A stretch of DNA of 64,000 bases from an uncultured Actinomycetota bacterium (GCA_963836085.1 CAWIHT010000012.1:6527-70526); one strand, 5' to 3'. Positions 3,270 to 48,417 are shown, counted from the first letter of the stretch. Program-made: numbers and translations. Notes: generated by a model not told the origin, from the letters alone.

Positions 3270-6200
3270 CTACGAACCCTTGAGCGACTGTCGGAACGAT
3301 TCGAGCGAGCGGACCACATTGGCTGCGTCGTCGCCGATGCGCGGGAGCTTGGCCGAGTTGCGCTCGTAGCGACTCGCCTGCACTTCCTCTTCCTCCTCGG
3401 TCGAATCCTCGTCGACCTTGGCGGCCGGCGCGAAGTCTGCGAAGTCGTCCTCAACCGTCTCAGGCGACTCGGCCTCGGCCTCGGTCTCGGTCTCGGCCCC
3501 GTAGACCGGCGTCGGCTGGTCGGGAGCCTCGTCCGGCCACACCACGCGGCGTGGCTCTTCGGCCTCCTCGACAGCCGGCGCCGCCTTCGCCGCTGCGAAC
3601 TGTGCTGTCTCGAGCCGCTCTTCGGCAAGCCGGGCACGTTCCTGTTCGATGCGGGCAGCCTGCGCTTCGATCTCACCCTGTCGCCGGTCGGCATCGGCCA
3701 TCACCGACTCCGCAGCTCGTTTCGCATCAGCGATGATCTGCTCCGCCTGAGCGGCTGCTTCTGCGGCGATCTGTTCGGCTCGCTCATTCGCTGCGCGGAG
3801 TGCCTGTTCGGCTTCTTCGCTCACGCTGGCGACTGAGTCCATGGTGACGCCGGCCGCATCCAAGGCGGCGGCCCGCTCGGCCAATTCGACGTCCCAGCGC
3901 TCAATCTCGGCGAGCCGAGAGCGCAGCCCGTCCTCGGCGGCATCCTGCTCGGCAGCACGCCGATTCAGTTCATCGCGTCGACCGGCCAATTCGGCTCGCA
4001 TCTGCTCGACCTCGTGGATCGTGCCCTCGTGCTCGGCCCTTGTGTTCTCGAGTTCGGCTACTTCGGCGAGCAGCCGTTCAATCTCTGCTCTGGCGGCTGT
4101 CGCCTCTCCCTCAGCCGCAGCTCGAATACCGACGGCCTCGCGCTGGGCCTGTTCGACGATCTCGAAGCCCTGACGCTCTGCGTCCGACAGGTCGGATGCC
4201 TGCATGCGGGCCGCGGTGAGGACCCGGTCGGCTTCGTCACGCAACGAGTTCGCCTCGTTGCGAATGCGATTGGCTTCGGCCTCGGCGTTGGCAACCAACT
4301 GCAAGGCGTCCCGCCTCTGAACTTCGGACTCTTGGAGGATGCGTGCGACTTCCTTCTCGCGCTCATCGGCTTCCTGGGTCCGCGCAGTGGCCTCCGAGAG
4401 AACCTGCGCCGCCCGGCCCTCCGCGTCGGCGAGCTTCTCGGATACCTCGGCTTCCACGCCAGCGATGATCTCTGTGGCCTGTCCTTCGGCGTCCTGGATG
4501 ATCTTGAGCTGCTCTTCGTACTCGTGGCGGACAGTGGCGGCCTTCTCCCGCATCCTCGCGACATCGTCGCGGGCTCCTGCAGTCATCGCTTCGACCGAAT
4601 CACGTGTCTCGGTCAGAAGCTGCTCAGCCTCAGACCTCATCTGCTGTGCGTACTCCTCGGCCGCGGCGATGGCGGCCTGAGCGTCGACGTGAACGGCTTC
4701 GGCGATCTCCTCTGCTTTGCGAACGATTGCTGCGCCGGTCTCTTCTGCCTCGTGGTGGACTCTGGCGGACTTCTCCATCGCATCATGGAGTTGGCGCTCA
4801 GCTTCATCACGAGCGGTGGAAAGGAATCCTTCAGCTTCGGCCGCGACCCGACCTGCTTCCTCGCGAACCCGCTCGGCCTCTGCCGTGACTTCGCCGGCGG
4901 ATCGTTCTGCATCGGTCCTGACGCGCTCAGCTTCCTCAGTCGCCTCGCGCAACCTGCGCTCGATCTCCTCGCGAGCACCAGAGCGGATCTGGTCGGCTTC
5001 GGTGGTAGCTTCACCTCGAAGTCGCTCGGCCTCCTCGAAGGCTGCAATGACTGCTTCTTCGGCCTGGCGGGCGATTTCGTCGACCGACGCGATGCGTTCC
5101 TCGGCTCTGACCTCGGCGGCGGCGAGAATCGCATGCTGCTCCTTGGCGGCCTCCCACGACATCTCGGCGTCGGCAAGGATCTGCAAGGCCTGCTGCTGTT
5201 CGGTCTCGGCCTCGACATATCGTGCTTCGATCCGGCGGAAGGCCCCATCAAACAGGTCAGCCGCTTCGGTGTCGGCTCGGGTCAGCGTCGCTGAGGCGTA
5301 CTCCTCAGCCTCAGCCCTGATCGAGTCGGCCTCGCTACGGAGGATCTGTGCGGTCTTCTCAGCTTCTCGCCGGGTCCGATCAGCGTCGTCCTTGACCTCA
5401 ACCGCTTCGTCGCGTGCCGCGGAGCGAACTGATTCCGCTTCCTCATGCAGCCGACGGGCGTCGGCGATGATCTCTTCGGCCTGTGCTTCCGCGGAATGAC
5501 GGGCCCGCTCGGCTTCGTCGCGCATGGTTCGAGCGTCGCGTTTTGCCTCTTCGATGACGGAGGCGGATTCGCTCTCGGCGTCGGTCTTGATCCGGTCCGC
5601 TTCTTCGCGGATCGCCGCTGCCTCGTCCTCGAACCTAGTTGCCTCGGCGCGCAGCTGGTCCACGCGTGCCTGCGCTTCGGCGAGTGCGGCGCCGGTCCGT
5701 TCTTCGGCGGCGACGACCTCTGCGAGACGGTGATCGAGTTCAGCCTTCTGGTCCTCGAACTCTGCGATCTGCTGTGCTGCGAGTGCTGCTGCGGCTTCCT
5801 GAGACTCCTTGATCTCGGAATCCACGCGAGCGCGGCGCTCTTCTGCCGCACTGATCATCTCTTGTGCTGCAGCCTCGGCGCTCGCCTGCGTTTCGGCACT
5901 CTCGGCGAGAGCAGAAGCAAGGATCTCCTGGGCTTCGGCCTCGAGCCGTGCGGCGTCTTCCTCGGCCGCCTCGCGGATTTGGGCGCCACGCTCATCGAAC
6001 CCCGTCAGGATCGACTGCATGCGCTCTTCGGCATCAGCGATCAGTTCCCTGGCGTCGCGTTGGGCCGCCGACACCTTCCGTGCAGCTTCGAGCCGGTCCT
6101 GATCGGCCTGGTCACGTGTCCGTGCCGCGGCCTGTTTGATGGCCCGTGCCGATTCCTCCGACCGGTCCAACACGCCCTGGGCACGCTCGCGTGCCGCGGC

Positions 6201-7505
6201 TTCGATACTTGCAGCCCGCTCAACGCCGGTGAGAGATTCTTCGTCGAGCAACGCGATCCGGGCTTCGAGATCGCGTTGGAGTTCAACCACCTGCTCGGCT
6301 TCTCGTTCGGCACGCATCAACAGCGCTTCGGCCTTCTCGCGGGCATCCTCGCGGATGTGCTCCGCCTCTTGCTCGGCGCGGGCAAGGACCTCGTCGGCCG
6401 TCTCGCCGGGACTCGCCACAACGGTGACTTCTGAGGCAGCTGCGGTTGCCTCGGCGATGATCGCCTCGGCTTGCGCTGCTGCGTTGCTCGCGGCTTCTGC
6501 GAGGATCACACTGGCTCGGTCGCGAGCAGCCCCGACAATCTCTGTCGCTTCAGACTCGCGTTCGGCACGGAGGCTCTCCACCTCGGCCAGCATGGCTGCA
6601 CGCTCGGATTCGAGTTCCCGAACCCGGTCGTCGAATTCGGCAGCCCGAGCTTCGAGATCGGCACCCGTCGCATCTGCGGCGGCAACGATTGCTTCGGCAC
6701 GCTCCTGCGCCTCGGCGAGGATGCGTTCGGCTGCCTCTGCTGCCTCGGCTTCGCGGTTCGAGTCGGGGGCCACGGCTGCTGCCAGCTCTTCCGAGAGGCG
6801 CTGCACATCGGCCGTCAGCCGGTCACGATCAGCTTCCAGCTCAGCGATGCGAGCCTGCTCGCTCTCGCGCTCAGCTGCGAGCAGTTGTTCTGCTTCGAGT
6901 TGGGCGACGGCAATGATCTCTTCGGCCTGCCGCTGCGCCTCTTCAACGAGCGCTGACCCGTCAACAGCATTCTGGCTGGTCTCAGCGATCAGCCGCTCGC
7001 GATCAGCCTCGAGTTCGGCAATGCGTTCTTTGTCGGCCGTTCGCTCGTGAGCGAACAGCTTTTCGGCTTCGACCTTGGCGGCCGCAACGAGTTCGTCGGC
7101 TTGCCGCTGCGCCTGTTCGATGATGGCGTCTGCGTTGGCGTCCGGGGTGGTCGTCTTGGCGCGTTGTTCGGCGTCCCGCTCGATAGCAGCGGCTCGATCT
7201 CGCGCCTCGGACTCGATCTTCGCTGCCTGTTTCCGGGCGCGGCTGAGCACGCGGTCCTTCGCGTCGAACACCGCGACCATGGCGCTGTCGACGGACTGAC
7301 CTTCCGACGATCGGGTCTTCTCCGCTTCAAACTCTGCCTTCTGCAGCCGGGTCTTCGTCTCCTGGGCCCAGTGTTCGAGCTCGCGGAAGTTCGACTCCAG
7401 TTCGCGGAGGAAATCTTTGACTTCACGCTTGTCGTAGCCCTTGCGGGTTGTCGAGAACTCGCGTGTGTCAATGGACTCTGGGAGGTTGGGGGCTTTCTCG
7501 CTCAC
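3270..7505 (-). CDS. DivIVA-domain protein with ~1300-aa Ala/Glu/Arg-rich coiled coil (Scy-like scaffold)
   Basis: N-terminal IDTREFSTTRKGYDKREVKDFL DivIVA signature; extended AE..A..I repeats; GTG start inferred at 7505. Confidence 0.75.
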   Translation of the reverse strand: MSEKAPNLPESIDTREFSTTRKGYDKREVKDFLRELESNFRELEHWAQETKTRLQKAEFEAEKTRSSEGQSVDSAMVAVFDAKDRVLSRARKQAAKIESEARDRAAAIERDAEQRAKTTTPDANADAIIEQAQRQADELVAAAKVEAEKLFAHERTADKERIAELEADRERLIAETSQNAVDGSALVEEAQRQAEEIIAVAQLEAEQLLAAERESEQARIAELEADRDRLTADVQRLSEELAAAVAPDSNREAEAAEAAERILAEAQERAEAIVAAADATGADLEARAAEFDDRVRELESERAAMLAEVESLRAERESEATEIVGAARDRASVILAEAASNAAAQAEAIIAEATAAASEVTVVASPGETADEVLARAEQEAEHIREDAREKAEALLMRAEREAEQVVELQRDLEARIALLDEESLTGVERAASIEAAARERAQGVLDRSEESARAIKQAAARTRDQADQDRLEAARKVSAAQRDARELIADAEERMQSILTGFDERGAQIREAAEEDAARLEAEAQEILASALAESAETQASAEAAAQEMISAAEERRARVDSEIKESQEAAAALAAQQIAEFEDQKAELDHRLAEVVAAEERTGAALAEAQARVDQLRAEATRFEDEAAAIREEADRIKTDAESESASVIEEAKRDARTMRDEAERARHSAEAQAEEIIADARRLHEEAESVRSAARDEAVEVKDDADRTRREAEKTAQILRSEADSIRAEAEEYASATLTRADTEAADLFDGAFRRIEARYVEAETEQQQALQILADAEMSWEAAKEQHAILAAAEVRAEERIASVDEIARQAEEAVIAAFEEAERLRGEATTEADQIRSGAREEIERRLREATEEAERVRTDAERSAGEVTAEAERVREEAGRVAAEAEGFLSTARDEAERQLHDAMEKSARVHHEAEETGAAIVRKAEEIAEAVHVDAQAAIAAAEEYAQQMRSEAEQLLTETRDSVEAMTAGARDDVARMREKAATVRHEYEEQLKIIQDAEGQATEIIAGVEAEVSEKLADAEGRAAQVLSEATARTQEADEREKEVARILQESEVQRRDALQLVANAEAEANRIRNEANSLRDEADRVLTAARMQASDLSDAERQGFEIVEQAQREAVGIRAAAEGEATAARAEIERLLAEVAELENTRAEHEGTIHEVEQMRAELAGRRDELNRRAAEQDAAEDGLRSRLAEIERWDVELAERAAALDAAGVTMDSVASVSEEAEQALRAANERAEQIAAEAAAQAEQIIADAKRAAESVMADADRRQGEIEAQAARIEQERARLAEERLETAQFAAAKAAPAVEEAEEPRRVVWPDEAPDQPTPVYGAETETEAEAESPETVEDDFADFAPAAKVDEDSTEEEEEVQASRYERNSAKLPRIGDDAANVVRSLESFRQSLKGS

Positions 7506-7638
7506 GTGCGTTCTATCGGCCGCACGTGCACCCACCTTGATGCGCAAACTAGTCAGTGCCGAAGGGACCAGTCACCGGCCCTGCGCGCGCGAGTGGGGCG
7601 ACCCGAGGGCCGCCCCACTCGATCAGTCAATCGATCGC

Positions 7639-12050: not shown

Positions 12051-12192
12051 AGCCGAATCGTACTGAATCCCGACCGGCCGAGCGCCGGAACGGCCTGACC
12101 GACACCGCAGCAACACTGGGACCATTGGCCCGCGGGCGCGGGTCGTCCTCCCCTGCCCCTCGCACCGGGCGGTGCGTACGATGCACCGAGCG

Positions 12193-14439
12193 ATGTCACC
12201 TCCACCCATCCGCCTCCGTCTTCGCGTCTCTGGAATCGTTCAGGGCGTCGGGTTCCGTCCGTTCATCTATGGCCTCGCAACCGAGGCTCACCTCGGCGGA
12301 TTCGTCGGCAACGACACCGACGGCGTGTTCATCGAGGTCGAAGGCGATGCGTCGGCTTTGGACCAGTTTGCTTCCGACATCGACACGCTCGCCCCGCCGG
12401 CCGCACGGGTCCAGCGAGTCGAGGCCGAGGAAGTGCCCGCCACCGGCGACACGTCGTTCGGCATCGTCGCCAGCCACCACGCCATGACCGGGACCGCACT
12501 CGTCTCTCCCGACCTCCGCACCTGTGACGACTGTCTGAAAGAGTTGCACGACCCCGATGACCGACGCCACGCCTATCCATTCATCAACTGCACCAACTGC
12601 GGGCCCCGGTTCACCATCACCGAACGCACACCGTACGACCGGCCGGACACCACAATGCGCCCATTCCCCATGTGCGAGCGGTGCCTGGCCGAATATGAGG
12701 ATCCGGCCGATCGGCGTTTCCATGCCCAGCCGAACGCGTGCCCGGATTGCGGCCCTGTCGTGGAGTCGGTGCCGGCGACGTCAGACCCGATCGGGGAGAC
12801 GCGCCGCCGCGTCACTGCCGGCGAGATCGTCGCCATCAAAGGCCTCGGTGGATTCCACCTTGCCTGCGACGCAACATCGGATGTCGCAGTCGGACTCCTT
12901 CGGGAACGAAAGGGAAGGGTCGACAAGCCATTTGCGGTGATGGTCGCCGACCTCACGACCGCCCTTGCCTTCGCTCAGATCGACGAGGACGAGGCACGCC
13001 TTCTCACATCGCAAGAGCGGCCGATCGTTCTCCTCGCACGGCGCCCCAACACGAGCCTCGCCGCGGCGGTGGCTCCTGGCAACGGCCACATCGGGATGAT
13101 GCTCCCGTACACCCCCCTTCACGACCTCCTCCTTGCACCGGGGGACGTGTGGGTGATGACCTCGGGCAACCTCGCTGAGGAGCCGATCGTCACCGGCAAC
13201 GACGAGGCCCTCGAACGCCTCTCCGGCCTCGCCGACGCGTATCTCCTCCACAACAGGGACATCTACGTGCCGTGCGACGACTCCGTCGTCCGCATCCTCG
13301 ACGGCGCCGAGTACCCGATCCGCCGCTCACGCGGCTACGCGCCGTTCCCGGTTCCGCTTCCGTTCGACGTGGCGCCGATCCTCGCGACCGGCGGAGAACT
13401 GAAGGCGACGTTCTGCCTGGCGGCGGGGCGAGATGGGTTCATGAGCCAACACATCGGCGACATGGAGAACCTCGAGACGCTCGATGCGTTCAGCCGATCC
13501 GTCGAACACTTCACCGAGTTGTTCCGAATCGAACCCGAGGCGATCGCCGCCGACCTCCACCCCGGATATCTGTCGACCAAGTGGGCGGAACGCCACCACC
13601 TGCCGGTGATCAAGGTCCAGCATCACCACGCGCATATCGCATCGGTCATGGCCGAGCACGGCATCAGTGAACCCGTGATCGGCTTCTCGTTCGATGGCAC
13701 CGGATACGGCACCGACGGGACCGTCTGGGGTGGCGAGATCCTCGTTGCCGACTACGGGCGATTCGACCGGGTCGGGCACCTCGCGCCGGTCCCCCTCGCT
13801 GGCGGCAATGCCGCCGTCCGCCATCCCTCACGCATGGCACTCGCACATCTACAGGCAGCCGGTATCCCCTGGTCGGATGATCTCGCACCGGTCCTCCACT
13901 ACACGAAGAGCGAGCGCCGGATGATCAAGACGCAGATCGAGCGCGAGATCCACACCGTTCCGACGACCAGCATGGGGCGCCTCTTCGATGCAGCCGCGGC
14001 GCTCTCCGGTGTCCGGCAGACAGCCTCATATGAGGCTCAGGCGGCCATCGAGTTCGAGGCGTTGGTCGACCGATCCGAACGGTGCTCGTACGACTTCGCG
14101 ATCACCGGCGACGCTGACCGGATCGTCCTCGAGCCAGGACCGGTCCTCCGAGCGATCGTCGACGACCTACGAGACGGTGTCTCAACCGGTGTGATCGCGG
14201 CCCGCTTCCACACCGCGGTCACGACAATGATCGTCGAGGTCGCCGAGCGGATCCGGTCTCGAACAGGCATCGCTACCGTTGGCTTGAGCGGAGGGGTATT
14301 TCAGAACGTGACAGTGACACATGCAGCCGCCATCGCCTTGAGTGGGAAGGATTTCTCCGTTCTCACCCACCGGCTTGTGCCACCCAACGACGGAGGTCTG
14401 GCGCTCGGCCAGGCCGTGATCGCGGCGACGCGGAGGTGA
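12193..14439 (+). CDS. hypF: Carbamoyltransferase HypF
   Basis: GIVQGVGFRPF acylphosphatase domain, CxxC zinc fingers, KGLGGFHL, QHHHAH, PPNDGGLALGQ. Confidence 0.95.
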   Translation: MSPPPIRLRLRVSGIVQGVGFRPFIYGLATEAHLGGFVGNDTDGVFIEVEGDASALDQFASDIDTLAPPAARVQRVEAEEVPATGDTSFGIVASHHAMTGTALVSPDLRTCDDCLKELHDPDDRRHAYPFINCTNCGPRFTITERTPYDRPDTTMRPFPMCERCLAEYEDPADRRFHAQPNACPDCGPVVESVPATSDPIGETRRRVTAGEIVAIKGLGGFHLACDATSDVAVGLLRERKGRVDKPFAVMVADLTTALAFAQIDEDEARLLTSQERPIVLLARRPNTSLAAAVAPGNGHIGMMLPYTPLHDLLLAPGDVWVMTSGNLAEEPIVTGNDEALERLSGLADAYLLHNRDIYVPCDDSVVRILDGAEYPIRRSRGYAPFPVPLPFDVAPILATGGELKATFCLAAGRDGFMSQHIGDMENLETLDAFSRSVEHFTELFRIEPEAIAADLHPGYLSTKWAERHHLPVIKVQHHHAHIASVMAEHGISEPVIGFSFDGTGYGTDGTVWGGEILVADYGRFDRVGHLAPVPLAGGNAAVRHPSRMALAHLQAAGIPWSDDLAPVLHYTKSERRMIKTQIEREIHTVPTTSMGRLFDAAAALSGVRQTASYEAQAAIEFEALVDRSERCSYDFAITGDADRIVLEPGPVLRAIVDDLRDGVSTGVIAARFHTAVTTMIVEVAERIRSRTGIATVGLSGGVFQNVTVTHAAAIALSGKDFSVLTHRLVPPNDGGLALGQAVIAATRR

Positions 14440-14445
14440 TGTGAA

Positions 14446-14736
14446 ATGTGTCTCGGCATCCCCGGGAGAGTCATAGAGATCAGCGGTGAGGGTATGACCC
14501 GCACCGGGCGAGTCGATTTCGACGGCATCGTCAAAGAGGTGAATCTCGCCTATGTGCCGGAGATCTCGATCGGCGACTACACGATCGTCCACGTCGGCTT
14601 CGCCATCACGCAACTCGACGAAGAGGCAGCACTCGCCACTCTGGCCCACCTACAGGAGCTCGAGGCCGTCGAAGTGGAACTCGATCCCACCGCGGCGCTT
14701 GCTGCAGAGGAAGCGGCGGCGAAGGGCGAGGCATGA
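14446..14736 (+). CDS. hypC: Hydrogenase maturation chaperone HypC
   Basis: MCLGIPG N-terminus; IVHVGFAI. Confidence 0.95.
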
Positions 14737-15839
14737 AGTACCTCGATGAGTTCCGGGATCCCGACCTCGCGCTCCGTCTGATTGACGACATCTCCCGGAT
14801 CGCGACGAAGCGCCACGTCTTGATGGAGGTGTGTGGGGGACAGACGCACTCGATCATTCGCAACGGCATCGACCGCCTCCTCCCTGACCAGATCGAGATG
14901 GTTCATGGCCCCGGTTGCCCCGTCTGCGTGACGCCCCTCGAGACGATCGACAAGGCCCTCGCGATCGCGTCACGCGACGGCGTCATCTTCTGCTCGTTCG
15001 GCGACATGCTCCGGGTGCCCGGTTCCGGTCGGGATCTGTTCTCGGTCAAGAGTTCCGGTGGCGACGTCCGGATCGTCTACTCCCCGTTGGATGCGGTCCA
15101 GGTCGCGCGCGACAACCCGGACCGCGAGGTCGTCTTCTTCGGCATCGGGTTCGAGACCACGGCACCGGCCAACGCCATGGCGGTGTACCAGGCGAAGCAG
15201 GAGGGCCTGACGAACTTCTCGATGCTCGTGTCACACGTGCTGGTGCCTCCGGCGATGCGCGCCATCCTCGAATCGCCGACCAACCGGGTCGAGGCCTTCC
15301 TCGCCGCGGGCCATGTCTGCTCCGTGATGGGCTACACGGAGTACGACCCGATCGCGGAGCAGTACGGCACCCCGATCGTCGTGACCGGCTTTGAACCGCT
15401 CGATCTGCTGCAGGGCATCAAGATGGCCGTCCTGCAACTCGAAGAGGGGCGCGGCGAGGTCGAGAATGCCTACGAACGGGCCGTCAACCGGATCGGCAAC
15501 CTGCCGGCGCAAGAGATGGTTGGCGATGTGTTCAAGACCATCGACCGCAACTGGCGCGGCATCGGGATGATCCCGCAGTCCGGGTGGGCACTCGCCGACG
15601 CCTACGCCGACTTCGATGCTGCCGAACGATTCACGGTCACCGACATCGACACGGTTGAGTCGCCGCTCTGCCACGCAGGAGAGGTCCTGCGCGGCACTCT
15701 GAAGCCGGATGAGTGCCCGGCATTCGGCAAGGAGTGCACGCCGCGCACGCCGCTCGGCGCCACCATGGTGTCGGCAGAAGGGGCCTGCGCCGCCTACTAC
15801 CTGTACGGAAGATTCAAGGAACTGGAGGCGACCCCGTGA
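14733..15839 (+). CDS. hypD: Hydrogenase formation protein HypD
   Basis: [21 protein letters not shown] and C-terminal [4Fe-4S] cysteines; ATGA overlap with hypC. Confidence 0.95.
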
Positions 15840-16879
15840 CGATCGACAACTGGTCGTGCCCGATGCCACTACGCGACCAGCCGATGATCGTGATGGGTCA
15901 CGGCGGCGGCGGGCAACTCTCGGCGGAGCTGATCGAGCACCTCTTCGTGCCGGCGTTCGGTGACAGGGAACTCGCTGAACTCGCCGACGCCGCAGTCCTC
16001 GACCCTGGCGGCAAGATCTCGTTCTCGACCGACTCGTTCGTCGTCCGTCCCCGCTTCTTTCCCGGTGGCAACATCGGAGAGTTGGCGGTCAACGGCACCG
16101 TCAACGACGTCGCCATGCGCGGCGCATACCCCCGGTATCTCAGCGTTGGCCTCATCCTCGAAGAAGGCCTTCCGCTCGCCGAACTCGGTGTCATCGTCGA
16201 CTCGATGGCAGCCGCCGCGGCCCACGCGGGCGTAACGATCGTCACCGGGGACACGAAAGTCGTCGACCGCGGACACGGCGACGGCATCTACGTCAACACC
16301 ACCGGCATCGGGATCCTCCGCGACGGTGCCGACATTCGGCCACAGCGCGCAGCCCCTGGTGACGTCGTGATCGTCTCCGGCACCGTCGGCGACCACGGCA
16401 TGGCGATCATGTCGGTGCGGGAAGGCCTCGAGTTTGAGACGTCGATCGTCTCCGACACGGCAGCGTTGAATCACATGATCAACGACGTGCTCGACACCGG
16501 AGCGGACGTGCATGTGTTGCGCGATCCAACCCGGGGCGGCCTTGCTGCCTCGCTCAACGAGATCGCTCACGCCGCGAACGTCGGTGTGCTGCTCGACGAA
16601 CGCGCCATCCCCGTCGACCGCACCGTCGCTGCAGCATGCGAAATGCTCGGGATGGACCCGATGTATGTAGCGAACGAGGGCAAGGTCGTTGCGGTCGTCC
16701 CGGCGGACGACGCGGACAAGGTTCTCGAGACCATGCGGTCCCACCCCGAGGGTGTCGACGCCACCGTGGTGGGTGAAGTGACCGACACCCATCGGAAGAT
16801 GGTCGCCGCAAGGACGCCGCTCGGTGCGACCAGGGTCGTCGACATGCAGGTCGGCGAGCAATTGCCCCGCATCTGCTGA
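15836..16879 (+). CDS. hypE: Hydrogenase maturation protein HypE
   Basis: HGGGG, NGTVND, GDTKVV, RDPTRGG and C-terminal PRIC; GTGA overlap with hypD. Confidence 0.95.
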
Positions 16880-16885
16880 CCTCAA

Positions 16886-16944
16886 CTCCCCGTTCTTGCG
16901 TAGATAGTGGAAGCCGGCTTCCCATAGTTACGCAAGAACGGGAG
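16886..16944. repeat. Long inverted repeat (REP-like hairpin or terminator) after hypE
   Basis: CCCGTTCTTGCGTA (16889-16902) pairs with TACGCAAGAACGGG (16929-16942); internal perfect palindrome GGAAGCCGGCTTCC (16909-16922). Confidence 0.75.
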
Positions 16945-17344: not shown

Positions 17345-17356
17345 AGACGCCGTCGT

Positions 17357-17393
17357 GATATCTAGAGATATCTTCGATTCTACCGGGTATACT
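17357..17393 (+). promoter_or_regulatory. Leaderless TetR promoter with 7-2-7 inverted repeat
   Basis: GATATCT-AG-AGATATC at 17357-17372; TATACT at 17388-17393, 6 nt before ATG 17400. Confidence 0.6.
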
Positions 17394-17399
17394 GTCAGC

Positions 17400-17966
17400 A
17401 TGGTGAAACAACGGATTGACTCCGAAGACGTGACAGGGGCTGCGCTTGAGGTCCTTGATGCGAACGGACCGGACGAACTGACGCTCTCCAAGGTGGCAGG
17501 CGAGTTGGGCGTTCAGTCGTCCGCCCTGTACAACCACGTGCGGGGCGTCAGCGGTCTTCGTCAGAACGTCGCCGCCGCCTCGTCCGAGGCATTGACGACG
17601 TCGCTGCGTGACGCCGCTATTGCGCGGTCGGGGCGTGACGCCCTGTGGGCGGTTGGCACCGCATATCGCCAGTTCGCCGTGGACCATCCCGGCCAGTTCG
17701 CAGCGGCAACCCTCATGTTCGGCGACCCGGCGCCGGAGACCACCGAAGCCATCACCTCAATCACCGAACTGTTCGTCCGCATCGTTGACGGTCTCGGCGT
17801 AGCGGAGGATCGCATCATCGACGACGCTCGAGCGATCCACAGCGCGATCAGGGGATTCGTCATCCTTGAACTTACCCTCGGTTTCGATGCGAGCGCCGAT
17901 CTGAACAAGTCGTTTGAACATCTCCTGGAGGTCCTCCTGCGCGGTATATCACCCGACCACGCCTGA
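17400..17966 (+). CDS. TetR/AcrR family regulator (WHG-type C-terminal domain)
   Basis: HTH LTLSKVAGELGVQSSALYNHV; C-terminal AYRQFA..HPG and IHSAIRGFVILE. Confidence 0.85.
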   Translation: MVKQRIDSEDVTGAALEVLDANGPDELTLSKVAGELGVQSSALYNHVRGVSGLRQNVAAASSEALTTSLRDAAIARSGRDALWAVGTAYRQFAVDHPGQFAAATLMFGDPAPETTEAITSITELFVRIVDGLGVAEDRIIDDARAIHSAIRGFVILELTLGFDASADLNKSFEHLLEVLLRGISPDHA

Positions 17967-18017: not shown

Positions 18018-19061
18018 TTGAGGATTGCATTTGTCGTCAATGACATCGCGACCGAAGAGCCCGGCTACACCACCACGCGACTCGGAATCGCAGCCACCAA
18101 CCGCGGCCACGAGGCGTGGGTGATCGGCGTCGGTGACCTGGCCTACGATCCAGACGAGCGCGTGAAGGCACGAGCCCGGCGCGTCCACCGGGCTCGGTAC
18201 ACGACCGGCCAGGCCTACCTCCGCGACCTTCAGGGCAAGAACGCCATCCAGGAGCGCGTCACCGTCGACGACCTCGACATTCTGATGCTCCGGAACGATC
18301 CGTCGACTGAGAAGGGCAAGCGGGAGTGGGCCAAGACTGCGGCCATTGACTTCGGACGGGTCGCGATGCGCCACGGCGTGATCGTGCTGAACGATCCGAA
18401 CGGTCTTGCAAAGGCTCAGAACAAGATGTACTTCCAAACGTTCCCCGAGGAAGTGCGACCCGAGACACTCATCACCCGGAACCGCGACGAGATCAAGGCA
18501 TTCGTGGCCGATCGCGGCAAATGCGTGCTGAAGCCGTTGCAGGGATCAGGAGGCGACGGCGTGTTCCTCGTCCGATCCGACGATGTCGCGAACCTGAATC
18601 AGATCATCGACGCCGTGACTCGGGACGGCTACGTGATTGCACAGGAGTACCTCACGCGAGCGGAAGAAGGCGACACCCGGCTCTTCCTCATGAACGGCCG
18701 GCCGCTGCGCCATCGCGGGCGATACGCCGCGTTCCGTCGCATCCGCACCGGGGGCGACATGCGCTCCAACGTCCACGCGGGCGGGAAACTCGGCAAGGCA
18801 CACCTCGATGACGACGCACTCCGTCTCGCCGAGATGGTCCGGCCCAAGCTGGTCCAGGACGGCATGTTCCTCGTTGGCCTCGACATCGTTGGCGACAAAC
18901 TGATGGAGATCAACGTGTTCTCTCCTGGCGGCCTCGGGTCGGCGCAGAAGCAGGAGGGCGTCAACTTCTCCGAAGCGGTGATCGACGCGCTCGAGAACAA
19001 GGTGGACTACATGACGTACTACCGGCGGAGTTTCGAGAACTCGGAGATGGCAACGCTATGA
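18018..19061 (+). CDS. Glutathione-synthetase-like ATP-grasp ligase
   Basis: GshB-like N-domain; KPLQGSGG, QEYL, RSNVHAGG, GLDIVGDKLMEINVFSP; TTG start after AAAGGA. Confidence 0.85.
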   Translation: MRIAFVVNDIATEEPGYTTTRLGIAATNRGHEAWVIGVGDLAYDPDERVKARARRVHRARYTTGQAYLRDLQGKNAIQERVTVDDLDILMLRNDPSTEKGKREWAKTAAIDFGRVAMRHGVIVLNDPNGLAKAQNKMYFQTFPEEVRPETLITRNRDEIKAFVADRGKCVLKPLQGSGGDGVFLVRSDDVANLNQIIDAVTRDGYVIAQEYLTRAEEGDTRLFLMNGRPLRHRGRYAAFRRIRTGGDMRSNVHAGGKLGKAHLDDDALRLAEMVRPKLVQDGMFLVGLDIVGDKLMEINVFSPGGLGSAQKQEGVNFSEAVIDALENKVDYMTYYRRSFENSEMATL

Positions 19062-19858
19062 CCGATACAGGTTGGACGATCACCACAGACTCAGACGATC
19101 CAATCGTTGCCACGGCGATCCACGCCGGTCACAGGCTCCGGCCGGACGTCGTCCCATTCACAGCCCTCGACGATGATGTCCGCCTCCGCGAGGAGGATCC
19201 GTTCACGAATCGGTGGCTCTCGATCTCGAAGAATCAGGTCGACGTTCGCACTTCACGATTTGAGGTCGACGTCAACCGGCCAAGAGACGGTGCCGTGTAT
19301 CTCGATTCCGATGCGGCCTGGGCCCTCGATCTTTGGACGTCCCCGCTCCCGGACGACGTGATCGAAGGATCGCTCGCCGAATACGACGCCTTCTATCAAG
19401 ACCTGGCCGCGGTCTGCGACGAGGTGGCCGCGAAACACCCCAGGTTCGTCGTCCTCGACCTCCACTCCTACAACCATCGACGAGGTGGGCCCGACGCACC
19501 GGTCGACGATCCTGAACTGAACCCAGAGGTCAATGTCGGTACCGGTACGGTGGATGGCGCGCAATGGGCCGACGTCGTCGATGCGTTCTCGACTGCGATG
19601 AGAGAAGCACCGTTTGACGGCGGCCATCTCGACGTACGCGAGAACGTTCGTTTCAAGGGCGGCTACATGAGCCGGTGGATCAACGAACGGTACGCGGGAC
19701 GCGGTTGTGCTCTAGCGATCGAAATGAAGAAGATCTTCATGGACGAGTGGACGGGCGAGGTCGACGAGGCCGTGCTCGCCACCATCGGGGACGCGCTCTC
19801 CACGGCAACGGACGCAGTTCGCGACGTCCTTGCCTCGTCACCTACCGCGGTTCGGTGA
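19058..19858 (+). CDS. N-formylglutamate amidohydrolase family protein
   Basis: AIHAGH, REEDPFT, SRFEVDVNR, DLHSY and AIE motifs; ATGA overlap with the ligase. Confidence 0.85.
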   Translation: MTDTGWTITTDSDDPIVATAIHAGHRLRPDVVPFTALDDDVRLREEDPFTNRWLSISKNQVDVRTSRFEVDVNRPRDGAVYLDSDAAWALDLWTSPLPDDVIEGSLAEYDAFYQDLAAVCDEVAAKHPRFVVLDLHSYNHRRGGPDAPVDDPELNPEVNVGTGTVDGAQWADVVDAFSTAMREAPFDGGHLDVRENVRFKGGYMSRWINERYAGRGCALAIEMKKIFMDEWTGEVDEAVLATIGDALSTATDAVRDVLASSPTAVR

Positions 19859-21749
19859 GTGCCACGAGGTCGTCGTTGCCGCGCAGGCGCTCCAGGCGAT
19901 AGTGCGTGTCTGGCTGGTCGAGATAGCTGGGTCGCAGCGGCGGCGGTACAAGGACGCGCCGTCGCTGGAGTTCCTCAATCACCGGTGCGTGCTTCACTGA
20001 GATCTTCCCGACCAGGAGCGTCTCGAGGCGCCCACCGTCGCCGAGGTACTCCACAACGCGCTGGAGACCTCGGAGGTAGATCGCGTCCTTGACGAATCCT
20101 CCACTGCGGTGGACGCGTGCGGCGATCTGGAACGCCGTGCGCGGCGTCATGCCGTAGTCGCCGGTCAGAAGACCGAAGGTCTCGACGAACTCGCTACCGT
20201 CGCTCACCGCCCGTGCCGCAATCACGCGTGCCGCCAGCGTCCTGAGGCGGGCCTCCGTGAGTCCGGCAACGAGGTACTCGGCGAGCACGCCGAGTCCCTC
20301 CTGCAGTTCGTCGTACCCGGCAAGACCGTTCGCGAGGAGCTTGAACCGCTGAGCAGCCCCGTTCCAGTACGTCAGGATGTGCGTGCCAACCTCGTGCTGG
20401 ATGAGCGGCTCAACCCGGTTGTCGGCGAATCGCATCTTCGACCCCACGAGGAGGCTCCCTTGCGAGACGACGAGCGACGTCACATCGTCGCGCAACTCGA
20501 CGGTGGCGCTGACACGTGGGTCAGCCTGCCGAAAGCGCTCGATCTCTTCTGCAGCAACGGCAGCGAAGGCCTCGGCATCAACGCTCTTGCCCCTGCGCTT
20601 CGACTCGGCGGGCGGCACCCGAGTGAGGAGGTCGCGCGCCGTCGCCACCATGGAAGGTTCCACCGCCCCATAGAGGGCAATGCTGGAGGGGAGAAAGCGG
20701 GGCCTGCCACGATCGCCGAGAAGGTCGAGTTGCAGGGACAACTCTCTCTGCTTCTCTCGGAAGATCGACTCGAGTGTGGGGTCCTCCACACGTTCGATAG
20801 GTATCGCATACAACGCCCGCTTCAGCGCCGTGGGGTCAACATCGAGGTGCCGATAGGCAAACCGCGGCGACCGGCCGAACTTCGCTCGTCGGAAGGCACT
20901 GTATTCGGAGTTGGTGTTCACGGGCGAAGCCATGAGGAGCAGATCGAACGCCGAGCCCACGGCCGCGAGCTCCCGATCGACGCGAGTGGCGGCACGCACG
21001 AAGGCACGGCGACCGAGTGCCTGGTAGTGCCGGGGACGATGGGTGGTTTGGTTGAATGCAAACTCATAGAGCGACTGCTGGAGCGCCCTCGAGAACTGGC
21101 GGTGGAGTGCCCGGGCGACGACCGGGTACACCTCTCCGGTGTCGTCGTCCCGGTAGATCGGCCTCACCTCGACTCCCGTCACTCGTACCGGCGATGTCGC
21201 TGTGCCAAACGAGCGCGAGATCTTCGGCACCCCGGGCGGCGAGAGGCGGCCACCGGCCGCGAGATCGACCTCCGCCGGCACGCCATCGATCTGAACCCTG
21301 CGCAAACCCTTCAGCAGGCGCACGACGCTCGGAGACTCGGCCTCGCGTCGTGCCACTACCACCCTGAATCCAGGCGGTCGAGGGGCACCGTCGGGCATAG
21401 CTCCGTTCTCGCCACGGGCACCGTCCCAAACCTCAACGATCAGGAACCCGCCAAACACCTCCGTCATTGCCTCGGCGATCGTCGAGATCAAGACGGCGGT
21501 CTGTTGCCGGTGTTTGCGATGCCGTGGAGCGATGAGATACGAGGCCTCACCCTTCACGAAGCGTGCCGCACCGGCATCCTCACTGTCGCCGGGCGGGCGA
21601 TAGACGATCAGGAACGGCAACTGCCGATCGATGTGAAGTCGCCCACCGTCGGGCAGGGATCGGCGGATCGGCAGGTCGCGTTCGAGCCGATCCGCGATCT
21701 GCCCGATCAGCTTGGTACCGATGACGGAACGATTTCCAGTCGATGCCAC
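19842..21749 (-). CDS. DUF1704 / 'QEGLA-motif' (MATCAP-like) metallocarboxypeptidase
   Basis: HEVGTH (HExxxH), LQEGLG and RVHRSGGFVKDAIYLRG; RBS GGAG before GTG 21749. Confidence 0.8.
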   Translation of the reverse strand: MASTGNRSVIGTKLIGQIADRLERDLPIRRSLPDGGRLHIDRQLPFLIVYRPPGDSEDAGAARFVKGEASYLIAPRHRKHRQQTAVLISTIAEAMTEVFGGFLIVEVWDGARGENGAMPDGAPRPPGFRVVVARREAESPSVVRLLKGLRRVQIDGVPAEVDLAAGGRLSPPGVPKISRSFGTATSPVRVTGVEVRPIYRDDDTGEVYPVVARALHRQFSRALQQSLYEFAFNQTTHRPRHYQALGRRAFVRAATRVDRELAAVGSAFDLLLMASPVNTNSEYSAFRRAKFGRSPRFAYRHLDVDPTALKRALYAIPIERVEDPTLESIFREKQRELSLQLDLLGDRGRPRFLPSSIALYGAVEPSMVATARDLLTRVPPAESKRRGKSVDAEAFAAVAAEEIERFRQADPRVSATVELRDDVTSLVVSQGSLLVGSKMRFADNRVEPLIQHEVGTHILTYWNGAAQRFKLLANGLAGYDELQEGLGVLAEYLVAGLTEARLRTLAARVIAARAVSDGSEFVETFGLLTGDYGMTPRTAFQIAARVHRSGGFVKDAIYLRGLQRVVEYLGDGGRLETLLVGKISVKHAPVIEELQRRRVLVPPPLRPSYLDQPDTHYRLERLRGNDDLVALTEPR

Positions 21750-21912
21750 GATGCTCCATTCGGGCCGGGAGTGGACAACCACACGCGCCCACATTGCCGC
21801 GGCGCCCAGCCGAGTCTACGGTCCCGCTGCGGCCTCGCCGTACGATCCCAGATGCCCCATGAGGCACGATCGTCTGTCGCTAGGATCGGTGTTCGATCCA
21901 GGAGGATGCGCC

Positions 21913-22641
21913 TTGGCACTGGTGGACTGCCCAGAATGCGGTGATCGCGTCTCAACAATCTCGCCGCAGTGTCCCAACTGCGGTCACGTTCTCTCCAAGG
22001 AGACCGCGGAGATCCAGCAGGACCCCGACGCTGTTGCCGCCGCACGTCTGCCGGTTGATCCGCCCGCTCCCGCGACACAGGCCCAGCCACGTTCGCAGAG
22101 CAACTGGGTTGTCGCCGCCGTCGTCGCGGCGATCGTCGGAGCGATCCTCGCCGTTGTAGCGGCCGCGGTGATCCTTGCCGGATCGGTCACCATCGAGAAC
22201 CCGTTCGACGACTCCGACTCCACCGATGCGGCCGGCCAGACGGCCATTGTTGAGACGACCGTCGTCGTGGACGCACCCAGCGACTACGGACTGGCGGTCG
22301 GCGAGTGCATCGACGACAGCGAACTGGAGCACTACTTCGCAGGCGACGACTACGCCACGACATCGTGCGATGGTCCGCATGACAACGAGGTGTACTACCT
22401 CCACGAGTATCTGCCCGGGCCGTTCCCAGGAGAGGACGCCGTCAGCGAGGAACTGGAGGACGTGTGCCGGGGAGAGTTCGAGGGGTACGTCGGCCGTGAC
22501 TACGAGTCGTCTTCCCTGGTGATCTACCGCCTCTGGCCGGGATCGGATTTGTGGGAGTCTGGGGGACGCATCGGCGAATGCCTGCTCTACGACAGCGATC
22601 TGGAGCCATTGACCGGATCGGCCTACCAGAGCGGCTGGTAG
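21913..22641 (+). CDS. Zinc-ribbon + TM + septum-formation-like domain protein
   Basis: CPECG..CPNCG ribbon, one TM helix, GECI..SCDGPHDNEVY motif; GGAGG before TTG. Confidence 0.7.
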   Translation: MALVDCPECGDRVSTISPQCPNCGHVLSKETAEIQQDPDAVAAARLPVDPPAPATQAQPRSQSNWVVAAVVAAIVGAILAVVAAAVILAGSVTIENPFDDSDSTDAAGQTAIVETTVVVDAPSDYGLAVGECIDDSELEHYFAGDDYATTSCDGPHDNEVYYLHEYLPGPFPGEDAVSEELEDVCRGEFEGYVGRDYESSSLVIYRLWPGSDLWESGGRIGECLLYDSDLEPLTGSAYQSGW

Positions 22642-45618: not shown

Positions 45619-48354
45619 CTACAGCAGACGCCCCGGGACGTCCTTCCGGCTCGGGAGCATGGCACCCTCGACCTTCCTGACCCGGATCCGGGAGTCGACG
45701 ACGATTGCGCCTTCGCCTGGTGCGAGAACCTTGACCGGGTTCAGGTCCATCTCGGCGATCTCCGGGATGTGGTCGATCAGCACCGAGAGCCGCATCAGCA
45801 ACTCCCTGAGCGCCGGAATGTCGCCGGGCTCTGAACCGCGGTAGCCCTCGAGCAGCCTGGCGGTCTTCACATCCGCGATCATCGAGTCGACGTCGAGATC
45901 GGTGAGCGGATTGATCCGGAAGGCCACGTCCTTCATCAGTTCCACGTAGACGCCGCCGAGGCCGAACACGACCAGGGGTCCGAAGAGCGGATCTTCGACC
46001 ATGCCGACGAGCACCTCGCGCCCACCGCCCACGAAGTCCTGGACAAGGACACCCTCGGAGTCGTCGCTCACGCTCATCACGCTGCGATAGGCCTCACGGA
46101 CTTTTTCGTCACCCGAGAGGTCGAGCGCAACGCCACCGACATCGCTCTTGTGAAGCACCGACGGGGCGATGACCTTCATGGCAACCGGACCGCCGAAGTC
46201 AGCTGCGATCGCTGCCGCTTCGTCCTCTGTGGCGGCGACCGCCATGCGAGCGCTCCTGATCCCGTAGGCCGAGAGGATGTCTCCGATCTCCTCCGGCTCG
46301 AGCCATCCGCCGTCGGAGCCCATACGGGAGACGGCACGACGGATGATCTGCTCGGCGGTGGGCCGGTCGATATCGTCGAACTTGGGGTACTCACCGGGAG
46401 GCGTGTCACGCCACTCGGTGTACTGATAGGCCGCACCAAGAGCACGGGCTGCCGATTCGGGGTAGGCGTAGAGCGGGATCCGCAGATCATCGGTGGCGAG
46501 AGGATCAGTCGACGCCGGATCTGCGGCCATGAATACGGCAACCACCGGGATTGAACCGTCGCCGTCAGCTACCGCAGCGTGAACAGCTCTCGCGACATCC
46601 TCGCACGTGTCGGGCCCGGTAGGGATCTGGATCACCATCAGGGCGTCGACTTCCTTGTATTCGAGGATCGTCTCGATCGTCTGCGCGTAGTTCCCCGGCT
46701 GCGCGGCTGCGATCATGTCCACCGGATTCTGAACAGCCGCTTCGGCCGGCAGGTGCTCACGGAGGGCCGCCTGAAGCTCAGCCGAGAACTCCGGGAGTTC
46801 GAGGCCGTTCGCCTCGAGGGCATCGGCCGCGAGGATCGCGGGACCGCCGGCGTTCGTCATCACCGCAACCTTCGGTCCAGTGGGCAGCGGCTGATTGGCA
46901 AGCAGCGAGGTGACATTGAAGAGTTCGACCATCGTGTCGGTTCGGATCGTCCCCGACTGCTCGAAGAGGGCGTCGACCGCGACATCGAGGCTGGCCATCG
47001 AACCGGTGTGGCTGCTCGCAGCCCGGGCGCCGGAACGCGAACGGCCCGACTTCACGACGACGATCGGCTTGTCGCGTCCGACGCGGCGGGCAATGCGACC
47101 GAAGCGACGCGGATTTCCGAACGACTCCGTGTACATGACGATCACGTCGGTCATCGGATCGTCTTCCCAGTACAGCATCAGGTCGTTGTTGCTGATGTCG
47201 GCCTGGTTGCCCAGGGAGACGAAAGACGACAGACCGATCTTCAACTGCGTGGCCTGCTTCAAGATGGCGAGGCCAAGCGCACCGCTCTGGCTCGCCATGG
47301 CGACGTTCCCCGGAGGCGGGAACGTGGGGCCGAACTGTCCATCAAGCCTCACAGCGTCGTCCGTGTTGAGGATGCCCATGCAGTTCGGACCGATGAGACG
47401 CATGCCGTAACGGCGTGCCGTCTGGACAAGTACGCGCTCAGCGCTGTCCCCAGTGTCGCTCACCTCGCCAAACCCGGCGGTGATGATGACGACGCCGCGG
47501 ACGCCCTTGCGCCCGCACTCCTCAACGGCGTTGAGGACGAGCGGTGCCGGCACGGTGATGATTGCCAGGTCGACAGAGTCTTCGATGTCGAGCACCGACG
47601 GGTAAGCCTTGACGGCGTGCACGAACGCTGCGTTTGGATTGACCGGGAACACCGGACCGGTGAACCCACCGGCCAGGAGGTTTCCGAAGAGGCGCCCACC
47701 GATGGAACGGTCGTTGCGGCTGGCTCCGATCACGGCGATGGACTTCGGACCGAGAATCGGCATGAGGGAGGCCGTGACCGAACGCTTCTCGTGCTCCCAC
47801 TCGGCCTCGCGGGCCTCGAGGGAGTACTCAATCGGGTATTCGACGCGGTATACGCCTTCGCCCAACTGGCGGACGAGCTTGTAGCCGGAGTTGCGGAAGA
47901 TGCGCATCATGCCGCGGTTCTCGTCGAGGACGAACGCCTCGAACTCGGTGATGCCTTGCAGCCGTGCGTAGACCGTGAGGTGCTGGAGCAGCAGCGAGCC
48001 AATGCCCCGGCCCTGGAAGTCGTCCTGCACGAGGAACGCGACCTCAGCAACCCGGTTCTCGTCGTCGCTCTTGTCGAGGAGAACGTCGTAGCGGCCGACG
48101 GCGACCATCTCATCATCGCGGATCGCCACAAAGGCCATCCGATCGACGTAGTCGACATTGGTGAAGTGCCGCAATTCGTCCGGCGTCAGATCGGTCTTGA
48201 CCTGGAAGAACCGGCGGTAGACGCTCTCCGGGCCCACCCTCTGGAAGAAAGCATGCTCAAGAGGGGCGTCCTCCGGCTTGATGGGACGAAGGTGGATCGC
48301 TCGCCCGTCACGAAGAAGGACGTCGAACTCGAACTCACTGGGGTATTCAGCCAC
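45619..48354 (-). CDS. GNAT + NDP-forming acyl-CoA synthetase fusion (Pat-type protein lysine acetyltransferase)
   Basis: N-terminal GNAT (QGRGIG), CoA-binding GAS..GPNCMG, SHTG, C-terminal ATP-grasp (EMDLNP); GGAG before GTG 48354. Confidence 0.88.
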   Translation of the reverse strand: MAEYPSEFEFDVLLRDGRAIHLRPIKPEDAPLEHAFFQRVGPESVYRRFFQVKTDLTPDELRHFTNVDYVDRMAFVAIRDDEMVAVGRYDVLLDKSDDENRVAEVAFLVQDDFQGRGIGSLLLQHLTVYARLQGITEFEAFVLDENRGMMRIFRNSGYKLVRQLGEGVYRVEYPIEYSLEAREAEWEHEKRSVTASLMPILGPKSIAVIGASRNDRSIGGRLFGNLLAGGFTGPVFPVNPNAAFVHAVKAYPSVLDIEDSVDLAIITVPAPLVLNAVEECGRKGVRGVVIITAGFGEVSDTGDSAERVLVQTARRYGMRLIGPNCMGILNTDDAVRLDGQFGPTFPPPGNVAMASQSGALGLAILKQATQLKIGLSSFVSLGNQADISNNDLMLYWEDDPMTDVIVMYTESFGNPRRFGRIARRVGRDKPIVVVKSGRSRSGARAASSHTGSMASLDVAVDALFEQSGTIRTDTMVELFNVTSLLANQPLPTGPKVAVMTNAGGPAILAADALEANGLELPEFSAELQAALREHLPAEAAVQNPVDMIAAAQPGNYAQTIETILEYKEVDALMVIQIPTGPDTCEDVARAVHAAVADGDGSIPVVAVFMAADPASTDPLATDDLRIPLYAYPESAARALGAAYQYTEWRDTPPGEYPKFDDIDRPTAEQIIRRAVSRMGSDGGWLEPEEIGDILSAYGIRSARMAVAATEDEAAAIAADFGGPVAMKVIAPSVLHKSDVGGVALDLSGDEKVREAYRSVMSVSDDSEGVLVQDFVGGGREVLVGMVEDPLFGPLVVFGLGGVYVELMKDVAFRINPLTDLDVDSMIADVKTARLLEGYRGSEPGDIPALRELLMRLSVLIDHIPEIAEMDLNPVKVLAPGEGAIVVDSRIRVRKVEGAMLPSRKDVPGRLL

Positions 48355-48417
48355 TGGGTCTCCCGGAAAAATCGCTGTCCCACAGGGTACCGGCATTGGA
48401 GACCCGAGCGTTCGGCC

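Follow-up and report, generated by a model that had tools for sequence, protein, structure and literature searches.

A 64,000-nucleotide stretch of DNA from an uncultured Actinomycetota bacterium (GCA_963836085.1 CAWIHT010000012.1:6527-70526) was analyzed; this whole stretch is called the window, and positions are counted from its first letter. The subject is a group of three genes at 18018 to 21749, which encode a GshB-family ATP-grasp ligase, an N-formylglutamate amidohydrolase (FGase)-like metallohydrolase, and a MATCAP-like metallocarboxypeptidase. The source genome comprises 3.12 Mb in 19 contigs and is 92.6% complete, and the G+C content of the window is 65%. Pfam scans were performed on a non-overlapping set of open reading frames (ORFs) across the whole window. 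The features of the locus are as follows.

17355 to 17966, plus strand: TetR-family regulator gene (PF13305, 4.5e-18; PF00440, 5.2e-05), 51 nt 5' of the ligase gene
18018 to 19061, plus strand: GshB-family ATP-grasp ligase gene, TTG start, 347 aa (Pfam and NCBIfam matches)
19058 to 19061, plus strand: ATGA junction at which the stop of the ligase gene overlaps the start of the FGase-like gene (sequence ...gctATGAcc...)
19058 to 19858, plus strand: FGase-family metal amidohydrolase gene, 266 aa (PF05013, 5.7e-22)
19842 to 19858: stretch of 17 bp in which the FGase-like and MATCAP-like genes, which are convergent, overlap at their 3' ends (ORF coordinates and sequence)
19842 to 21749, minus strand: two-domain MATCAP-like gene, 635 aa from the GTG at 21749 (PF08014, 1.9e-84)
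19857 to 20939, minus strand: C-terminal MATCAP-type gluzincin carboxypeptidase domain, residues 271-631 of the 635-aa protein (structure match to human MATCAP)
20289 to 20303, minus strand: QEGLG motif (family consensus QEGLA), aligned in translation with EEGLA of human MATCAP
20379 to 20396, minus strand: HEVGTH (HExxxH) metal-binding and catalytic motif, aligned in translation with HEIGTH of human MATCAP
21048 to 21653, minus strand: N-terminal domain with a degenerate FGase fold, probably non-catalytic, residues 33-234 of the MATCAP-like protein (structure and profile match)

This layout agrees with that described in the initial annotation. The GshB-like ATP-grasp gene joined through ATGA to an FGase-like gene was found in the sequence and by Pfam, the convergent gene carrying HEVGTH and QEGLG with its 17-bp 3' overlap was recovered from coordinates and translation, and a TetR gene lies just 5' of the ligase gene. 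The ATGA junction is a predicted translational coupling of the ligase and FGase-like genes. As had also been stated, gshA and hut families were not found in the Pfam scans of the ORF set of the window. The longest ORF of the peptidase gene begins at the ATG at 21794 (650 aa); alignment with 46 homologues prefers the GTG at 21749 (635 aa), the start given in the annotation. The real start of the TetR gene may be downstream of the GTG at 17355.

Properties of the three gene products

The ligase matched PF02955 (GSH-S_ATP; 176.6 bits against a cut-off of 23, 4e-52) and PF02951 (GSH-S_N; 42.8 bits against 21.3, 6e-11), and its score against the NCBIfam subfamily NF009110 (470 bits) was above the cut-off of 408. 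It fell below both GshB equivalog cut-offs (NF003573, 220.3 versus 272; TIGR01380, 207.6 versus 299.05), and is thus not a certified GshB, in line with its earlier description as GshB-like; it also fell below the RimK models (TIGR00768, 77.3 versus 143.4; NF007764, 30.5 versus 331). The Pfam families that matched the ligase were GshB, RimK, and YheCD; the RimK match (58.1 bits) is of the kind seen for GshB-type proteins generally, and the TTL family was not matched. GshB of E. coli (PDB 1GSA) aligned with the ligase at 4e-37. Counterparts of GshB R86, K125, K160, the GxGG loop, D208/R210, R225, R233/N235, D273, E281, and N283 were all present, and across 58 family members each is either invariant or conserved to at least 90%; we take these residues to be the ATP/Mg ligands and the small and large active-site loops of GshB. 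With its catalytic residues retained, the ligase looks active as judged from its sequence. Like E. coli GshB, it thus has two domains and retains the ATP/Mg ligands together with the two active-site loops; it differs from that enzyme in lying below the equivalog cut-offs, in being tied to two hydrolases instead of gshA, and in being fused to an FGase in some bacteria, as described below.

The FGase-like protein matched PF05013 with 79.4 bits (cut-off 28.9, 5.7e-22), but it is not HutG, since it scored 27.3 bits against the cut-off of 278.75 of TIGR02017. The AlphaFold2 model of this protein had a predicted local distance difference test score (pLDDT) of 94.1 and gave Z-scores of 24.1 with the FGase 2Q7S (root-mean-square deviation [rmsd] 3.0 over 245 aa) and 21.9 with Atu2144 (2ODF). 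The protein thus has the fold of the HutG/FGase family and belongs to it, although it differs from HutG in its score and in lying in a window whose ORF set gave no hut genes. Lower structural scores were obtained with carboxypeptidases A and B (Z 11-12), CCP5 (Z 9.3), Csd4 (Z 11.7), poly-gamma-glutamate hydrolases (Z 11-12), and the murein tripeptide amidase MpaA (Z 9.0). A search of the PDB with the single sequence gave no match, and the family profile reached only E 0.054 (2ODF). In the stand-alone FGase family, H22, E45, D47, D71, N73, R74, D134, H136, and E222 were invariant in 44 homologues, and the conserved His, Glu, and Asp residues are presumably metal ligands. Because the catalytic residues H22, E45, D47, H136, and E222 are kept, the enzyme looks active.

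The third protein matched PF08014 (MATCAP; 284.2 bits against a cut-off of 27, residues 300-637 of the 650-aa reading) and narrowly missed the cut-off of TIGR02421, a hypothetical equivalog named QEGLA (318.5 versus 338.65 bits). In an AlphaFold2 model of the 635-aa protein made with 47 homologues (pLDDT 91.1; predicted template modeling score 0.89), residues 271-631 were aligned by VIA-align with human MATCAP (7Z6S_C) at Z 23.6 and an rmsd of 3.3 over 292 aa, with 19% identity. Foldseek gave E 1.3e-07 for the C-terminal domain, and the family profile matched 7Z5G at 2.8e-11, pairing HEVGTH with HEIGTH and QEGLA with EEGLA; a PDB search with the single sequence gave no match. The MATCAP-like protein of the initial annotation is therefore a true structural homologue of human MATCAP with an HExxxH motif, supported by both structure and profile. 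It differs from human MATCAP in its low identity (19-20%) and in having an extra domain, apparently a pseudo-FGase. The H, E, and H of HExxxH, the Q, E, and G of QEGL(A/G), and eight Arg/Lys residues were invariant in 47 homologues. The peptidase, which keeps HExxxH and QEG, looks active, and the eight invariant basic residues are consistent with an acidic substrate. Mean column identity was 70% in the ligase family, 56% in the FGase family, and 51% in the peptidase family.

The N-terminal extension of the peptidase had been proposed as a possible selector of the substrate, and Pfam gave no significant match for it. Instead, structure and hhalign place it as an FGase-fold domain homologous to the neighboring FGase. 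Residues 33-234 were aligned by VIA-align with the FGase 2Q7S_A at Z 13.4 (rmsd 3.3 over 183 aa), with Atu2144 at Z 11.1, with M14 carboxypeptidases at Z 9-11, and with the poly-gamma-glutamate hydrolase PghP at Z 9.7; comparison with the stand-alone FGase family by hhalign gave a probability of 95.3% and E 2.1e-08 over 177 columns. The position of FGase H136 is occupied by W108, a Trp that is nearly invariant, and the domain has no counterpart of the first ~65 residues of the FGase, where H22, H25, E45, and D47 are located. Since these ligand residues are missing, the extension of ~250 residues is probably a degenerate, inactivated FGase copy fused to the peptidase, and the long peptidase, as modeled, is itself a pseudo-FGase-MATCAP fusion. 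A profile of the N-terminal domain found 867 representatives at E <= 0.001; among the best 150 of these, 87 were proteins of at least 600 aa with the domain at the N terminus, and the other 63 were 184-555 aa long and may be either fragments or whole proteins. A short peptidase lacking this domain was present in eight of ten cassettes of the phylum sample described next.

Conservation and organization of the module

The neighborhoods of MATCAP-family genes were compared in an even set of 401 genomes of the phylum (the phylum sample), 20 of which, including the source genome, carry such a gene. An NF009110-type ligase (E < 1e-94) was encoded directly beside the MATCAP gene, on the same strand, in 12 of the 19 other genomes, and in 8 of the 19 an FGase was also present on the side of MATCAP opposite the ligase. 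Two unpublished genomes (G001 and G228) are among the 19; when they are excluded, the ligase was found in 10 of 17 and the ligase plus FGase in 7 of 17. The trio neighbors were confirmed by tblastn at 34-57% identity in ten fetched loci. The phylum sample also contained a second MATCAP subfamily of ~430 aa in seven genomes (L033-L039: G091, G271, G391, G095, G136, G208, and G285). Its Pfam scores are higher (up to 5e-120), it stands alone in variable contexts, and neither ligase nor FGase was found nearby; it was therefore rejected as a part of the module.

A species-level scan with the peptidase family alignment, using one genome per species, found at least 572 relatives, and the best 80 loci were analyzed. 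At least 15 phylum-level names appear in the record titles of these 80 loci, among them Actinomycetota, Chloroflexota, Planctomycetota, Acidobacteriota, Gemmatimonadota, Calditrichota, and Myxococcota. Arrangements were scored by tblastn with the proteins of the window, the trio being counted within 6 kb, with the following results.

FGase-MATCAP-ligase on one strand: 58 of 80 loci
All three genes in any arrangement: 67 of 80 loci
Ligase present: 75 of 80 loci
Ligase absent: 5 of 80 loci

In three of the five loci without a ligase (L042, L111, and L114) the contig ends at the peptidase gene, whereas L100 and L102 have room for a ligase yet lack one. When the 3445 ORFs of the 80 loci were clustered all against all, the three module families were found in 78, 73, and 70 loci, and no further real family occurred in more than 12 of the 80. 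The genes of the module are often packed tightly: 4-bp overlaps join FGase and MATCAP in L023, L024, L027, L028, and L029, and MATCAP and ligase in L023, L024, L027, L029, L030, and L031. In addition, a search for longer relatives of the ligase revealed 45 clusters of natural FGase-ligase fusions of 615-704 aa, in which the FGase is N-terminal and the whole ligase is covered at 63-71% identity. Two proteins that join the long peptidase to the ligase (P0050 and P0051) were not counted as evidence.

The co-occurrence of the trio is far beyond chance. The neighborhood counts, which the initial annotation had proposed as a check, place the trio together in other genomes, and synteny over many phyla, translational coupling, and gene fusions establish the ligase, FGase, and MATCAP as a genuine functional unit. 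The flanking genes vary, and the module is thus self-contained; it is real and widespread. In L054, L058, L064, L077, and L079 (named Planctomycetota), L062 (Gemmatimonadota), and L087 (Proteobacteria) the module is expanded: two or three GshB-like ligase genes stand in tandem, with products 55-64% identical to the ligase of the window, and some of these loci also have two long peptidase genes. DUF3828 proteins directly adjoin the module in L093, L103, L106, and L110, whose records are named Pyrinomonadaceae or Acidobacteriota. Literature searches found no description of the biochemistry of the trio, in line with what had been stated earlier; an earlier genomic prediction of the neighborhood may exist. 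The literature found on PA3697 says of it only that fhp is under its control and does not describe the trio.

The organization in the window departs from the canonical co-directional order FGase-MATCAP-ligase in that the ligase-FGase pair is convergent with MATCAP. The same convergent layout was seen in L040, L041, L043, L051, and L057 among the best 80 loci, with titles naming Actinomycetota, Actinomycetes, or Acidimicrobiia. A TetR homologue adjoined the module in only one of the 80 loci, L040, the closest relative, whose peptidase is 89% identical. Because the layout is confined to five actinobacterial loci and TetR to L040, the arrangement in the window reflects an inversion, specific to this lineage, within an operon that is elsewhere co-directional, and the TetR gene is a recent, lineage-specific addition. 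TetR, which the initial annotation had listed with the trio, is therefore no part of the conserved module. Promoter, terminator, and inverted-repeat scans around the TetR gene revealed no credible operator above shuffled expectation.

Upstream of the TetR gene, hypF, hypC, hypD, and hypE (hydrogenase maturation; Pfam) stand in a row at 12172-16879 on the plus strand, followed at 16889-16942 by a 27-nt inverted repeat that looks like their terminator. The start of the peptidase gene is adjoined by an ORF with a Septum_form domain (21712-22641). Elsewhere in the window, a 1425-aa ORF at 3270-7547 on the minus strand has an N-terminal DivIVA domain as its sole Pfam match, and a 925-aa fusion at 45622-48396 on the minus strand combines a GNAT acetyltransferase with an ADP-forming acyl-CoA synthetase-like region (CoA_binding, Succ_CoA_lig, and ATP-grasp_5). 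The latter seems to us to resemble Pat-type protein acetyltransferases.

Possible function of the module

The reading that we tentatively favor, with chances a little short of even, is that the module forms and cleaves amide bonds at the carboxyl terminus of a small peptide of acidic (glutamate) type, in connection with osmotic or ionic stress. What we infer is the chemistry of the individual steps, the acidic nature of the substrate, and the stress role; the gene content, conservation, coupling, fusions, folds, and catalytic residues are as described above. By GshB chemistry, the ligase would use ATP to activate a carboxylate as an acyl-phosphate, to which an amino acid would then be added. 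The MATCAP-type HExxxH carboxypeptidase would take C-terminal residues off the ligase product, and the FGase-type amidohydrolase would cut the remaining N-acyl-amino-acid or dipeptide-like amide. The N-terminal domain of the peptidase, as an inactivated FGase copy, would probably bind the same ligand or dock the active FGase. Physiologically, the pool of this peptide would likely be adjusted when osmotic or ionic conditions shift. The ligase-FGase pair was inverted in this lineage with respect to the peptidase gene and set behind a TetR regulator.

A small substrate is suggested by two observations. No conserved small ORF was found within 700 nt of 44 canonical cassettes, and no precursor gene is co-encoded there; second or third ligase genes stand in tandem in some planctomycete loci. 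A 129-aa protein with two LysW-like zinc ribbons is encoded directly after the ligase gene in one Caldilineaceae locus (L049:9120-9506). Its C terminus is basic, and it was rejected as a carrier because it has no acidic tail. MATCAP-family enzymes (TMCPs) take off C-terminal Tyr and Glu and shorten polyglutamate chains (PMC10499314).

The neighbors of the module and one expression data set point to stress. MscS-type channel ORFs were found in 10 of the best 80 loci (11 ORFs, 6 of them checked by Pfam, with one of these 6 lying between the peptidase and ligase genes in L079). About 0.7 would be expected in the ~0.6 Mb of flanks examined; this expectation is rough arithmetic from 29 MscS-domain genes in 26.3 Mb (five complete chromosomes). 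The MscS-domain genes near the module in those chromosomes were all four in G401 (within ~15 kb), two of nine in G402, two of six in G403, and none in G404 and G405. In G401, the chromosome with L053, the module and the MscS cluster lie at ~2.920-2.936 Mb. A further MscS-like protein is encoded near the module in L061, CorA neighbors occur in five loci (a BLAST cluster whose L045 member was checked by Pfam), MgtE lies between the module genes in L097, and CNNM/CorC and TrkA-C proteins recur as neighbors. Cation-chloride cotransporters occur in five loci (a BLAST cluster; L049 was checked by Pfam, and L108 has the permease domain only). In Photobacterium damselae, consecutive genes annotated as GshB and QEGLA motif protein were up 38-fold and 27.5-fold at 1% NaCl, and RimK was up 52-fold in the same low-salt condition (PMC10308900). 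The channel neighbors and the low-salt induction suggest a role in osmotic or ionic stress.

Several points weigh against this reading. The substrate and product are putative, and the inactivity of the peptidase N-terminal domain is deduced from missing ligand residues. Only the smaller part of the loci have channel or transporter genes as neighbors, and the module in the window is flanked by none; the MscS enrichment has a background of five genomes, and kin among the loci are not independent. The Photobacterium genes were assigned to the module only by their annotation names and consecutive locus tags, and their induction at low salt does not tell whether it is synthesis or breakdown that counts. 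If a ligase and hydrolases acting on one bond are encoded in a single operon, or joined in a single polypeptide, a futile cycle would result in the absence of regulation. Glutathionylspermidine synthetase/amidase, like the FGase-ligase fusions, combines in a single chain a carboxylate-amine ligase with the hydrolase of the bond that it forms, but its hydrolase has a CHAP fold and its ligase belongs to another subfamily. Finally, the ligase keeps every mappable GshB hallmark and could be a real glutathione synthetase, and the MATCAP relatives act on protein tails, which favors a tagging system; these two alternatives, together with a salvage route, are weighed below.

If the ligase were, as publicly annotated, the real glutathione synthetase of the organism, both hydrolases would degrade glutathione or its conjugates. 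This would agree with the name of NF009110, glutathione synthetase, whose cut-off the ligase passes, and with its match to E. coli GshB at 4e-37 and its retained catalytic residues. The ligase is also the only RimK/GshB-type gene in the source genome and the only strong GSH-S_ATP match in that genome and in all five complete module-bearing chromosomes, and a GCS2-family ligase is encoded in 9 of the 11 genomes of the phylum sample that carry the module and in four of the five chromosomes. However, both curated GshB equivalog models scored below their cut-offs, and PF04262 (GshA) was not found in the source genome, at its 92.6% completeness, or in the five chromosomes. The GCS2 gene was never adjacent to the module, nor was gshA beside it among the loci examined, and no GCS2 match was obtained in three module carriers: G124 (100% complete), G338 (92% complete), and the complete chromosome G401. 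The single GCS2 gene of the source genome encodes a carboxylate-amine ligase of the YbdK type (NF010039). It is found next to nadE on a different contig (L002, G000:C14:208779-212615), where it lies between the NAD synthase gene and that of an M20-type amidohydrolase. Thus, the objection foreseen in the initial annotation, that gshA might be elsewhere in the genome, is not cleanly answered, in view of this YbdK-type gene. Actinobacteria, moreover, generally use mycothiol. Glutathione synthesis by the module is unlikely, and we consider it very improbable that the ligase and both hydrolases serve glutathione in this way. In a salvage route, as opposed to a write/erase cycle, the hydrolases would act on a peptide that is imported, stored, or derived from the cell wall, and the amino acid or short peptide so freed would be re-attached by the ligase to another acceptor; the MpaA/Mpl route of murein-peptide recycling in E. 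coli serves as a comparison. The hydrolase-ligase fusions (45 clusters) make more sense for consecutive than for opposing steps, and the FGase model resembles MpaA (Z 9.0), Csd4 (Z 11.7), and poly-gamma-glutamate hydrolases (Z 11-12). On the other hand, genes for peptide transporters or for the cell wall are not conserved next to the module in the 80 loci, and the MpaA-type scores are at the level of a shared fold only. Salvage appears decidedly unlikely.

A more serious alternative, although still a doubtful one, is reversible tagging of the C terminus of a protein encoded elsewhere, as RimK and RimB act on ribosomal protein S6 or in the manner of the tubulin code: the ligase would extend an acidic protein tail by one or more amino acids, and the MATCAP-type and FGase-type enzymes would take them off. 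In structure, the peptidase domain is clearly homologous to human MATCAP (Z 23.6), whose family trims protein tails as well as polyglutamate chains (PMC10499314), and the FGase fold is that of the M14 carboxypeptidases, including the tubulin deglutamylase CCP5 (Z 9.3). RimK is the ATP-grasp family next closest to the ligase after GshB, the source genome has no other RimK-type gene, and the 70% mean column identity of the ligase across phyla is as expected for a conserved macromolecular target. In Pseudomonas and E. coli, RimK, which acts with RimA and RimB, adds glutamates to the C terminus of RpsF and makes poly-alpha-glutamate, and RimB cleaves these glutamates off; the Rim genes and the related RloABC operon both show an ATP-grasp ligase co-transcribed with a peptidase that undoes the ligation, as may hold for the module, and the Rlo peptidases are needed under hypoosmotic stress (PMC12239564). 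The peptidases are unrelated, however, being retropepsin-like aspartic enzymes in the Rim and Rlo systems and two metallohydrolases here, and the ligase here is of the GshB type with GSH-S_N, far below the cut-offs of the RimK equivalog models. In addition, clustering of the 80 loci and the search of the 44 cassettes gave no candidate target gene conserved near the module, and ligase paralogues in tandem would be better explained by a stepwise synthesis of peptides. Moreover, the N-terminal domain of GshB and its two active-site loops are present in the ligase, and in GshB these loops close over a small substrate. The tubulin tail cycle of eukaryotes, in which TTL/TTLL ligases oppose MATCAP/TMCP1-2 and M14 peptidases of the CCP type, uses the same three enzyme classes as the module; here, in contrast, there is neither tubulin nor a microtubule-binding region, and the ligase is unmatched to the TTL family of Pfam. 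An extension of the tagging idea, and a speculative and fairly unlikely one, is that the tubulin code has a prokaryotic forerunner in the module, which would reversibly tag the acidic C-terminal tail of a conserved bacterial protein in response to turgor or ionic strength, and eukaryotic MATCAP would have descended from it. With similarly low probability, the target in that case would be a protein such as a ribosomal or cytoskeletal one, and the ATP-grasp writer and the MATCAP-type and M14-fold-type erasers would later have been used on tubulin.

The three-enzyme unit, found under at least 15 phylum-level names, is an uncharacterized bacterial module. Its genes are publicly annotated under the metabolism of glutathione and histidine, probably wrongly so for two of them. 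The three proteins are small, soluble, and confidently predicted, and their biochemistry is therefore directly approachable. Bacterial relatives of MATCAP, which in humans detyrosinates and deglutamylates tubulin, adjoin an ATP-grasp ligase and could show the origin of that enzyme pair. The recurrent neighbors of the stretch-activated, Mg, and K channel types, together with the low-salt induction, suggest a testable idea: in bacteria, osmotic or ionic stress may be buffered through the condensation and release of an acidic amino acid.

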